64,000 nucleotides of DNA from Escherichia coli O157:H7 (GTDB lineage: Bacteria > Pseudomonadota > Gammaproteobacteria > Enterobacterales > Enterobacteriaceae), in NCBI RefSeq assembly GCF_013167455.1, contig NZ_CP038328.1; one strand, 5' to 3'. Shown in pieces: positions 2,758 to 64,000 of the stretch. The position numbers and the translations under genes are program-made. Below the pieces are notes generated by a model. It worked only from the letters and a program-made list of their open reading frames with translations, searched no databases and was not told the DNA's origin. The first letter of the stretch is position 1, and the number at the start of each line of letters is the position of its first letter.

Positions 2758-2982
2758 TCCTGACTTAATGCCGCAAGTTCGCCAAATCGACCTGGATTAA
2801 CCTCCGTCCAGGTTCGATGACCTTCTTAATACTGCTTATCTACCCGCCTGATATTGTTCAAAAATAATACTAATCGCAGTTTGTGTTAAAACGGCGGCTT
2901 AGCTTTATGAGATTATTCTTATCGTCCCTTCAAGAGCTAAGCCACTGAGAGTGCCGGAGATAAGCGCCGGATGGGGTAGAAA

Positions 2983-3020
2983 CCCTTAAGCCTGTGTCGC
3001 ACAGACTTAAGGGTTTTCTT
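2983..3020 (+). terminator. Rho-independent terminator hairpin (possibly 3' end of sRNA RydB)
   Basis: Near-perfect inverted repeat cccttaagcctgtg / cacagacttaaggg followed by ttttcttatttc on + strand, about 225 nt past ydiH stop. Confidence 0.5.
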
Positions 3021-20686: not shown

Positions 20687-20992
20687 TCAGGCGAGTTTTG
20701 CCTGATTGATTTGACTCAGTGGCTCATTGACATCGAAAACTTTGGCGACAACTTCCTCAACGCCGAGTTTTTTCAGTTGGGCAGTGTGTTTTTCCAGATA
20801 GGCAAGGGCGCTTTTTTCATCAGTGAAAAGGTAGATCCCACCGGCTTCGTGGTTCTTTTCACTTTCTGTCCATACCTTCCACAGAAAACCAGGTTCCTGA
20901 TTAATCGACTCTGCAAGTGGTTTAAGCTGCTCAGCCATTGCGTCGCCAAATGGGCCATTAAAAGCAAAATGAAGTTGTAACAAAGTTGCCAT
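20687..20992 (-). CDS. ydhR: Small uncharacterised protein YdhR (101 aa)
   Basis: 101-aa ORF; synteny. Confidence 0.7.
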
Positions 20993-21099
20993 AGCGATTC
21001 TCCTTCTGATAACGCATACGAAGACAGTGTAAATCTTTTAACGTATTGGATACAGAGAAGAAGCAGAGGGAAAAAGGAGAAGACCAGATTAACAAAATC

Positions 21100-21176
21100 T
21101 GGTGCGTCCGAGTGGACTCGAACCACCGACCCCCACCATGTCAAGGTGGTGCTCTAACCAACTGAGCTACGGACGC
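21100..21176 (-). tRNA. valV: tRNA-Val (GAC)
   Basis: Reverse complement reads GCGTCCGTAGCTCAGTTGGTTAGAGCACCACCTTGACATGGTGGGGGTCGGTGGTTCGAGTCCACTCGGACGCACCA; anticodon GAC; encoded CCA. Confidence 0.9.
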
Positions 21177-21180
21177 AGGA

Positions 21181-21257
21181 TGGTGCGTTCAATTGGACTC
21201 GAACCAACGACCCCCACCATGTCAAGGTGGTGCTCTAACCAACTGAGCTATGAACGC
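21181..21257 (-). tRNA. valW: tRNA-Val (GAC), second tandem copy
   Basis: Reverse complement reads GCGTTCATAGCTCAGTTGGTTAGAGCACCACCTTGACATGGTGGGGGTCGTTGGTTCGAGTCCAATTGAACGCACCA; 4-nt spacer from first copy. Confidence 0.9.
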
Positions 21258-27893: not shown

Positions 27894-28826
27894 ATGTGGT
27901 CAGAATATTCACTCGAAGTTGTTGATGCGGTAGCGCGTAATGGTAGTTTTAGCGCTGCGGCACAGGAGCTGCATCGCGTTCCTTCTGCGGTCAGCTATAC
28001 CGTGCGTCAGCTGGAAGAGTGGCTGGCGGTGCCGCTGTTTGAACGACGGCACCGTGATGTGGAGCTGACCGCTGCCGGAGCGTGGTTTCTCAAAGAAGGG
28101 CGCTCTGTTGTCAAAAAAATGCAGATCACCCGCCAGCAATGTCAGCAGATAGCGAACGGCTGGCGCGGTCAGTTAGCTATCGCAGTGGATAATATTGTCA
28201 GGCCAGAACGTACACGGCAGATGATCGTTGATTTTTATCGCCATTTTGATGATGTCGAACTTCTTGTCTTTCAGGAAGTGTTCAACGGTGTCTGGGATGC
28301 GCTTTCCGACGGGCGCGTGGAACTGGCGATTGGCGCAACACGCGCGATTCCGGTAGGCGGTCGTTATGCCTTCCGGGATATGGGGATGCTAAGCTGGAGT
28401 TGCGTTGTTGCCAGCCATCACCCGCTGGCGTTGATGGATGGCCCGTTCAGCGATGATACGTTGCGCAACTGGCCGTCGTTGGTGCGCGAAGACACCTCGC
28501 GAACGCTACCTAAGCGTATTACCTGGTTGCTGGATAACCAAAAAAGAGTTGTCGTGCCTGACTGGGAATCATCGGCAACCTGTATCTCGGCAGGATTATG
28601 CATAGGGATGGTGCCAACACATTTCGCCAAACCGTGGCTTAATGAGGGGAAGTGGGTAGCATTAGAACTGGAAAACCCCTTTCCGGATTCGGCATGTTGT
28701 CTGACATGGCAGCAAAATGATATGTCGCCTGCGTTAACCTGGTTGCTTGAGTATCTCGGCGATAGTGAGACGCTGAATAAGGAGTGGCTGCGGGAGCCGG
28801 AAGAGACTCCCGCAACGGGTGATTAA
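27894..28826 (+). CDS. ydhB: LysR-family transcriptional regulator YdhB (PunR)
   Basis: 310 aa; N-terminal HTH ([23 protein letters not shown]); 4-nt convergent overlap with purR. Confidence 0.8.
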
Positions 28827-29848
28827 CGACGATAGTCGCGGAACGGGCCGTCAGCCACGGAGCGGCGTTCAATCAAGCGCGGATGCACTTCAATGGACTG
28901 CGGTTCTTCACGTTTGTTGACTATACGATCCAACAACATGTTGAACGCTGTTTCACCCAACGAATCTTTTGGCTGATGGATTGTTGTCAGCGCCGGCGTA
29001 AAATAGCGGGCGTTGCGCACGTTATCATAACCGATCAGCGAAACATCCTGCGGGACGCGCAGCCCCATTTCATCAGCAGCACAAAGTGCGCCCATTGCCA
29101 TGATATCGCCACCACAGAAGACGGCAGTAGGGCGATGCGGCTGCGACAGGATTTGCTGCATGGCGCGATAACCGGATTCAGGTTCAAAGTCACCCTGCAC
29201 AATCCAGCTTTCCGGCACCTTGATCATTGCTTCTTCCATCGCCTTCATAAAACCGGCAAGGCGGCCTGCGCCAGTGTTACGTTCCAGCGGGCCGGGGATA
29301 ACGCCGATTTCGCGGTGACCGCGTTCAATCAGATAACGCCCGGCCATGTAGCCGCCTTCGAACGCGTTATCAATGACCGCATCGGTGAAGTCAGCTTTTG
29401 CTTCACCCCAGTCCATCACCACCATTGGGATATGGCGATACTCTTCCAGCATCGCCAGCAACGGCTCTGGGTACTCAGAACACATCACCAGCAGACCATC
29501 GACGCGTTTTTGCGCCATCATCGACAGATAAGCCCGCTGTTTCTCAAGATTGTTCCACGCATTACCCAGAATCAGGGTGTAACCTTTCTGGAAGCAATTT
29601 TTTTCAACTGCTTCAATGATCTCGGCAAAATAGGCCGCTTCGCTGCTGGTCGCTAGCAAACCGATAGACTTGGTGTGGTTAACCTTCAGGCTACGCGCCA
29701 CCGCGCTAGGGGAGTAGTGTAATTCTTTGATCGCTGCCCACACGGCGTTGCGCGTTTCTTCAGCGACGAAACGTGTTTTGTTGATCACGTGTGACACAGT
29801 TGTAGTGGAAACGTTTGCTCGTTTCGCTACATCTTTTATTGTTGCCAT
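28823..29848 (-). CDS. purR: Purine repressor PurR (LacI family)
   Basis: 341 aa; [33 protein letters not shown]. Confidence 0.95.
29807..29820. promoter_or_regulatory. PUR-box-like operator inside purR coding region
   Basis: ggaaacgtttgctc contains the AAACGTTTGC core of the PurR operator; about codons 10-14 of purR. Confidence 0.4.
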
Positions 29849-29894
29849 TCCATTTCACTCCAGACCCTAACTTCAGCTCCTGCAAAATCGCAAG

Positions 29895-29907
29895 GTAAAC
29901 GTTTGCC
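29895..29907. promoter_or_regulatory. PUR-box-like operator in purR leader
   Basis: gtaaacgtttgcc with AAACGTTTGC core, about 50 nt upstream of purR start. Confidence 0.4.
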
Positions 29908-30146
29908 TTTACACACCTTACGCACAACAAAAGTGTTGCGGTACGCCGGAAAAACGACACGGAGCGTCAGGAAGGGGTCAATGGCCAGTACGCAAATAGT
30001 GTAAGCGTGGAATTTTGGCCGATCTTGACGAAAAGGGGAAGTGGTAAAAACACTTATCATTATAAATGACGGGAGATTTTTTCATCACAGTGTGTAAAAA
30101 TGCGTAATATCACTTTTTGTGTGGTAATAAAAAAGGAGAAAACTTG

Positions 30147-30236
30147 ATGAGCACCGACCTTAAATTTTCACTGGTAACAACGATTATCGTCCTCGGTTTG
30201 ATCGTGGCCGTGGGTTTGACTGCCGCGCTGCACTGA
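30147..30236 (+). CDS. ynhF: Small hydrophobic protein YnhF (29 aa, single TM)
   Basis: ATG 30147 preceded by aaaaggagaa; encodes MSTDLKFSLVTTIIVLGLIVAVGLTAALH; below ORF-track length cut-off. Confidence 0.7.
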   Translation: MSTDLKFSLVTTIIVLGLIVAVGLTAALH

Positions 30237-30401
30237 TTTCCTCTCGAGGGAGCGCGTTCTCCCTCGCATCTCCTTCCTGTTTGTTAGCAAAATGGCAAAA
30301 GTGTTTTCTCTTTTTGTTATTTTCATTTTTTTGTGATTGCTGTCATGCTTTCGCCACTTTAATGAATATCGCGTAATGACGCGAAGAGGTGGAGATAAGG
30401 C

Positions 30402-31716: not shown

Positions 31717-32298
31717 TTATGCAGCGAGATTTTTCGCTACGAATTCCCAGTTCACCAGCGCCCAGAAGTGCTCAAGATAGCCAGGACGTGCATTGCGATA
31801 GTCGATGTAATATGCGTGTTCCCAGACATCAACGGTTAGCAGCGGAGTCGCATCGGTGGTCAGCGGAGTACCCGCGTTAGAGGTTGAAACGATAGCCAGT
31901 TTGCCATCGCTGTTTTTCACCAGCCAGGTCCAGCCAGAACCAAAGTTTTTGATCGCTGCATCAGTAAACTGAGCTTTGAAATCGGCAAAGCTGCCAAAAG
32001 ATGCGGCGATAGCTTCAGCGACTTTTCCAGTCGGTTCGCCACCGGCGTTCGGTGCCAGGCAGTTCCAGTAGAAAGTATGGTTCCAGACCTGAGCTGCGTT
32101 GTTGAATACGCCACCTTCAGAGCTGCGAATAATCTCTTCCAGTGATTTACCTTCAAACGCGGTACCTTTAATCAGGTTGTTCAGGTTAGTGACATAAGTC
32201 TGATGATGCTTGCCGTAGTGATACTCGATAGTTTCCGCAGAAATGTGCGGTGCCAGAGCATCTTTAGCATATGGTAGTGCAGGTAATTCGAATGACAT
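31717..32298 (-). CDS. sodB: Fe superoxide dismutase
   Basis: 193 aa; [32 protein letters not shown]. Confidence 0.97.
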
Positions 32299-58534: not shown

Positions 58535-61423
<2,889 letters not shown>

Positions 61424-63463: not shown

Positions 63464-64000
63464 ATGAGCGACAACATCCGTGTTGGGTTGATTGGGTATG
63501 GTTATGCGAGCAAAACCTTCCATGCGCCCCTGATTGCGGGCACACCCGGGCTGGAACTGGCGGTAATCTCCAGCAGTGATGAAACAAAAGTAAAAGCCGA
63601 CTGGCCAACGGTTACGGTTGTCTCTGAGCCGAAGCATCTGTTTAACGATCCCAACATAGACCTGATTGTCATTCCTACACCCAACGATACCCATTTCCCG
63701 TTAGCCAAAGCAGCGCTTGAGGCGGGTAAACATGTGGTCGTTGATAAACCCTTTACCGTGACACTGTCACAAGCGCGAGAGCTGGATGCGCTGGCAAAAA
63801 GCCTGGGGCGTGTTCTGTCTGTATTCCATAACCGTCGTTGGGATAGCGATTTCTTGACGCTAAAAGGTTTGCTCGCGGAAGGCGTGCTGGGTGAAGTTGC
63901 TTACTTTGAGTCTCATTTTGACCGCTTCCGTCCGCAGGTGCGCGATCGTTGGCGTGAACAGGGCGGCCCAGGCAGCGGTATCTGGTACGATTTAGCACCA
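63464..64000 (+). CDS. ydgJ: Gfo/Idh/MocA-family oxidoreductase YdgJ, N-terminal part (3' end beyond window)
   Basis: ATG 63464 (MSDNIRVGLIGYGYASKTFHAPLI); Rossmann GxGxxS motif; open to window end. Confidence 0.8.
   Translation, partial: MSDNIRVGLIGYGYASKTFHAPLIAGTPGLELAVISSSDETKVKADWPTVTVVSEPKHLFNDPNIDLIVIPTPNDTHFPLAKAALEAGKHVVVDKPFTVTLSQARELDALAKSLGRVLSVFHNRRWDSDFLTLKGLLAEGVLGEVAYFESHFDRFRPQVRDRWREQGGPGSGIWYDLAP

Follow-up and report, generated by a model that had tools for sequence, protein, structure and literature searches.

Two PurR operators at purR in an Escherichia coli O157:H7-type chromosome, one in the leader and one within the coding sequence

The window analysed here is a stretch of 64,000 nucleotides (64 kb) of an Escherichia coli chromosome, and it carries on its minus strand purR, the gene that is regulated and that also encodes the repressor. 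The features at and around the 5' end of this gene are as follows.

28823..29848, minus strand: purR coding sequence, an open reading frame of 341 aa with its ATG at 29848, named 'HTH-type transcriptional repressor PurR' by RefSeq in the E. coli genomes that match
29805..29820, minus strand: purR operator O2, intragenic, gene-sense sequence GAGCAAACGTTTCCAC
29893..29908, minus strand: PUR box O1, the operator of purR that lies in the 5' untranslated leader, gene-sense sequence AGGCAAACGTTTACCT
29849-30239, plus strand: full-length match (396 bits) to Rfam family RF02081 STnc550, described as 'enterobacterial sRNA'
30147-30236, plus strand: cydH, a small-protein gene of 29 codons inside the STnc550 span

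E. coli O157:H7 chromosomes, where purR, punR and cydH are annotated, match positions 28700-30400 with 100% identity, and this segment is found in 5425 of 5426 complete E. coli genomes. Over 801 nt compared between the window and K-12, in which the RefSeq name for purR is b1658, three positions differ, and none of them falls within an operator or in the interval separating the two; base for base, the operator region is the same (O1 at 1737784-1737799 and O2 at 1737872-1737887 in K-12 coordinates). Both sites have the same sequences and the same positions relative to the ATG as O1 and O2 of K-12 purR (Rolfes & Zalkin 1990, J Bacteriol 172:5758). There is no difference of substance from these operators, and we regard the pair as the same element in an O157:H7-type chromosome. 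At the far end of the gene, the convergent frames of purR (minus strand) and punR (plus strand) share four bases (28823-28826), so that their stop codons overlap.

The centre of O1 lies 52.5 nt 5' of the purR ATG, while O2 extends from the second position of codon 10 to the second position of codon 15 and encodes R-A-N-V-S-T, within PurR's own helix-turn-helix region. The two are separated in the window by 88 bp and bracket the start codon. The original prediction had proposed two strings with a common core, one in the leader and the other at about codons 10-14, and both were found exactly where it placed them: on the plus strand, gtaaacgtttgcc at 29895-29907 and ggaaacgtttgctc at 29807-29820, the second being a 14-mer that corresponds to codons 10-14. 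Compared with the perfect palindrome ACGCAAACGTTTGCGT, O1 matches at 13 of 16 positions with three mismatches; O2, by our own count against the same 16-bp consensus, matches at 11 of 16 with five mismatches, and keeps the central CpG and the core GCAAACGTTT intact. This 10-mer occurs twice in the 64 kb, at O1 and O2 alone, against 0.35 occurrences expected, and at least two copies were present in 4 of 100 shuffles.

Both sites were scored with a PurR position weight matrix made from the 27 motifs, purR's own excluded, that Cho et al. 2011 give in their Table 1 (ChIP-chip). O1 scores 20.8-21.2 bits, which ranks first among 127,970 positions in the 64 kb and exceeds the median of the training sites; it is unambiguously a PurR operator, far beyond chance. 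O2 scores 11-12 bits, which makes it about the fourth distinct site in the window and puts it near the minimum of the training sites (9.8-11.9). A scan of this kind had been suggested as a check on the pair, and its outcome is a clear operator score for O1 and only a marginally positive one for O2. By score alone O2 is marginal, being comparable to a few probable chance sites, and sequence alone would not establish it; it is a weak member of the PurR operator (PUR box) class. A chance match is nevertheless unlikely given where O2 lies, near the beginning of purR and 88 bp away from O1: the chance of such a match within 100 bp of O1 is about 0.01, a rough estimate from about 3 other sites per 64 kb multiplied by 200 bp. 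Two further 16-mers in the window, GCGCCAACGATGGCGT (61021-61036) and ACGCCAACGATCGCGC (63940-63955), score 12.6-13.9 bits with the same matrix, slightly above O2, and are probably chance matches.

Does the coding sequence under O2 carry any trace of selection beyond the protein code? Related loci were retrieved with a degenerate DNA pattern for the PurR-specific peptide WNNLEKQR, which yielded 50 loci; the pattern lies about 290 nt 3' of the ATG, so the operators are not biased by the retrieval. The purR 5' end is included in 41 of the 50, and together with the window these make 42 Enterobacteriaceae sequences, from Escherichia, Salmonella, Citrobacter, Kluyvera, Enterobacter, Kosakonia, Pluralibacter, Phytobacter, Yokenella and other genera. 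The N-terminal protein sequence of PurR is identical across all 42, and synonymous positions can therefore be read directly. In Yersinia, Serratia, Pasteurellaceae and Vibrio the helix-turn-helix may read otherwise, for example 'LAGVS' instead of 'RANVS'. Codons 11-14 are nearly invariant (GCA in 41/42, AAC, GTT and TCC each in 42/42), against a mean third-position entropy of 0.92 bit over 82 comparable codons and the use of three or four synonyms at nearby Ala, Val and Thr codons of the same gene, where Ser codons also vary. These four codons form the lowest-entropy window of 89 four-codon windows, with a permutation P of about 0.0015 (0.15%). The fixed synonymous positions fall at operator positions 5, 8, 11 and 14. 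The sole varying synonymous position in O2 is operator position 2, in codon 10, which is C (CGC) in 24 of the 42 sequences and then gives a PurR score of 14.4 bits.

As for O1, its core GGCAAACGTTT shows 99-100% conservation across the 40 loci aligned, with variable flanks and a variable surrounding leader, and those flank variants (e.g. ...TTTTCGT) hold or raise the matrix score, up to 22.7 bits. Scanned from -330 to +291, all 42 loci have O1 and O2 as their top two matrix matches. Of 5424 E. coli genomes, 5337 carry the 121-bp operator segment with an identity of 99% or more, and only 1974 do so for the surrounding 1.7 kb. We conclude that selection acts on O1 and O2 beyond what the protein code requires. 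Four consecutive frozen codons in 42 loci constitute a clean computational signature of an element in coding DNA, and this quantitative synonymous-site footprint of O2 is the only small addition of the present work.

The wider comparison brought up two further observations. Six purR loci of Kluyvera and Yokenella contain a third PUR-box-like near-palindrome at +174 (codons 59-64), e.g. ACGAAATCGATTGGCC; this site scores up to 13.8 bits, and its E. coli counterpart does not score. In E. coli HB101 (NZ_CP178859.1) only the first 87 bases of the 121-bp operator segment find a match, in two places, and no purR annotation lies under the match, which suggests that in this assembly purR is interrupted between the start codon and O2, at a point corresponding to about 29829 in the window.

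Published evidence places PurR at this locus in vivo. By ChIP-chip, Cho et al. 2011 (PMC3159470) detected adenine-dependent binding of PurR at purR, in a region (1,735,528-1,736,095 in older K-12 coordinates) that after coordinate conversion extends from ATG-340 to ATG+227 and covers both O1 and O2. Table 1 of the same paper gives O1 as the only purR motif, in the form AGGTAAACGTTTGCCT, which is O1 on the other strand. It also states that at purB and purR the repressor binds the reading frame and blocks elongation; for purR this is stated by analogy with purB. A GalR study of 2016 (PMC5110547) lists both 16-mers at ynhF/purR in its Table 4, with matching K-12 coordinates (GAGCAAACGTTTCCAC at 1737872-1737887), and notes, with reference to Meng et al. 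1990 and Rolfes & Zalkin 1990, that both sites overlap PurR operators. The title of the Rolfes & Zalkin paper, as cited there, states that two sites are required and that they lie downstream of the promoter, and both corepressor-dependent binding by purified PurR and a loss of regulation when the operators are mutated are ascribed to it by that title and by citing papers. The K-12 RefSeq record has no binding-site features, and a further operator paper, PMC3266220, has the purMN operator as its subject. For binding of O2 by PurR itself we draw on secondary citations.

The original prediction of dual-operator purR autoregulation, with one operator inside the gene, therefore corresponds to the published arrangement, and the K-12-identical sites, Cho et al. 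2011, PMC5110547 and our own matrix scan and footprint all agree with it. The arrangement is already known and has been in the literature since 1990; the prediction, made from raw sequence alone, recovered a real regulatory element embedded in coding DNA, which holds nothing new for biology.

How could operators in these positions repress their own gene? The distance from the promoter is central to the answer, and the following features bear on it.

30012..30017, minus strand: candidate -10 hexamer CAAAAT of the purR promoter, suggested by conserved columns
30059-30064, minus strand: alternative candidate -10 hexamer TATAAT, a -10-like match
29849..30004, minus strand: putative purR 5' leader, with its start set about 7 nt 3' of CAAAAT

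No purR promoter reached the threshold of a simple sigma-70 consensus scan, and a literature search for a mapped transcription start of this promoter found nothing. The hexamer CAAAAT is present in 37 of 40 loci, and in 36 of these it lies 108-111 nt 5' of the start of O1; in the window the two -10-like hexamers sit about 109 and 156 nt 5' of O1. If CAAAAT is the -10 element, transcription would begin near 30004, and the centres of O1 and O2 would fall near +104.5 and +192.5. These centres probably agree with the operator positions in RegulonDB. With either candidate start, both operators would lie about 100 nt or more past it, too far downstream for promoter occlusion.

The leader itself was also considered as a source of regulation. 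A regulatory RNA structure or attenuator in the purR leader was rejected, its fold being no better than that of shuffled sequences (z = -0.35), and Rfam has no family on the minus strand of the leader. A leader block at 29940-29993 (minus strand) is about 90-100% conserved in 40 Enterobacteriaceae loci, and a weak terminator-like hairpin with a T-run lies within it at 29955-29969.

We consider it highly probable (roughly 0.93) that O1 and O2 are the operators through which PurR represses its own gene, acting as two independent roadblocks. When purines are plentiful, hypoxanthine or guanine would load the PurR dimer, and the loaded dimer would bind each 16-bp imperfect palindrome independently, with O1 in the leader as the stronger site and O2 in codons 10-15 as the weaker one. 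Situated roughly 100-190 nt past the inferred transcription start, the two operators would present successive roadblocks to elongating RNA polymerase, and the outcome would be a mild negative feedback on purR mRNA, probably of a few fold. In the early work on purR, from 1990, O1 is reported to lie past the transcription start and ahead of the start codon, and O2 within the coding region; binding was reportedly non-cooperative, with an affinity for O1 about six-fold higher, and autoregulation reportedly amounted to two- to three-fold. In vivo PurR occupancy and the block to elongation are taken from the literature; the exact transcription start, the non-cooperativity and the effect size are inferred or belong to the general background.

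A roadblock of this type is not without parallel, as PurR is a standard cited example of a roadblock repressor. Of all LacI-family sites, less than 1% are within coding regions. The intragenic PurR operator of purB (He & Zalkin 1992) is likewise a PurR site in coding sequence, and it blocks elongation and not initiation. It differs from the purR arrangement in being a single operator located deeper in the gene, whereas purR has two, in the leader and at codons 10-15, and its product is the repressor itself.

Another possibility for the nature of these sites is that they do more than regulate purR. The operators may be bifunctional, combining purR autoregulation with gating of the STnc550/cydH transcript, or may be hybrid PurR/GalR sites; we consider this unlikely, and if true it would make either galactose signalling or the expression of a cytochrome bd-I subunit dependent on purine status. 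Its first component, that the sites also or instead control an opposite-strand STnc550/cydH leader RNA, with O2 over the promoter of that RNA and O1 as a roadblock at about +52, appears quite unlikely on its own. The plus strand does carry a full-length STnc550 match that includes cydH, and its span is antisense to the entire purR leader, O1 included; there is, moreover, a Salmonella MarA/RamA ChIP peak at purR<>ynhF. The left end of the STnc550 match, however, falls exactly 1 nt past the purR start codon, as the boundary of an intergenic region would, and the best plus-strand promoter match before 29849 reaches only 7/12, at a position that is not conserved. We suspect that this boundary reflects a definition by intergenic region and not a mapped 5' end, and the family may be an mRNA so defined and not a true sRNA. 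A plus-strand promoter overlapping O2 was rejected, the matches being weak and positionally inconsistent, and a literature search found no paper on STnc550.

The ChIP peak merits a separate remark. The Salmonella study (PMC10268841) assigns the marbox GCCCGTTTCGCTACA to the peak 'purR<>ynhF', and the counterpart in the window is GCTCGTTTCGCTACA at 29817-29831 (plus strand), which overlaps 4 bp of O2. This marbox is a weak match (P about 7e-4) and lies 73 bp from the centre of the ChIP peak; the peak centre itself would map near O1 given the same orientation as that of the window, where sodB (31717-32298) lies on the cydH side. The supplement of the MarA paper has no entry for purR or ynhF.

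The second component holds that the sites are mainly or additionally GalR operators, which would link purR to galactose signalling. The ynhF/purR region was detected by GalR ChIP-chip and confirmed by ChIP-qPCR, the GalR sites inferred there have the sequences of O1 and O2, and the promoter-distal half of O2, GTGGAAAC on the plus strand, resembles the GTGGAAAC/GTGTAAAC-type GalR half-sites of the same study (PMC5110547). Expression arrays nevertheless showed little or no GalR-dependent regulation of these genes (PMC5110547), O1 is near the PurR consensus, and the occupancy by PurR is adenine-dependent; we therefore regard the GalR reading as very unlikely. Since GalR also occupies the region in vivo, the conservation of O2 is not attributable to PurR uniquely. 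As an observation in its own right, O2 resembles a PurR/GalR hybrid site.

The existence of a second operator could be dispensed with altogether if O2 were a mere by-product of the Ala-Asn-Val-Ser codons of the helix-turn-helix, with no regulatory role, and autoregulation proceeded through O1 alone. A score of 11-12 bits, like that of a few unrelated sites in the window, is what such a by-product might reach, and Cho et al. 2011 give O1 as the only motif at purR. The codons themselves argue against it: 41-42 of 42 loci use the same synonyms at codons 11-14, against variation at nearby Ala, Val and Ser codons, and where codon 10 varies, the CGC found in 24 of 42 raises the PurR match to 14.4 bits. 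The 1990 title, for its part, says that two sites are required. We find this account highly improbable, and the reading of O1 and O2 as two operators for PurR is the one that we retain.

It remains to compare the pair with the auxiliary operators of other LacI-family systems. lac O2 in lacZ and gal OI in galE are likewise LacI-family palindromes in a reading frame 3' of the promoter, and they act by DNA looping to a promoter-proximal operator, through the LacI tetramer or through GalR with HU. The purR pair is unlike them in that its spacing is neither phased nor conserved and that PurR is dimeric. PurR is a dimer without a tetramerisation domain, and its binding is reportedly non-cooperative. 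A lac- or gal-like looping pair with cooperative binding across the 88 bp, as two LacI-family operators around the start codon might suggest, is hardly credible and was rejected, because the centre-to-centre spacing varies from 85 to 88 bp among the 42 loci, with no conserved helical phasing, and 88 bp amounts to about 8.4 helical turns, out of phase.

Elsewhere in the window, Rfam matches at the gathering threshold comprise the rydB sRNA (2924-2984, plus strand), a pair of minus-strand tRNAs (21103-21176 and 21184-21257) and the 'antisense RNA' HPnc0260, whose match at 20976-21138 overlaps one of these tRNAs.
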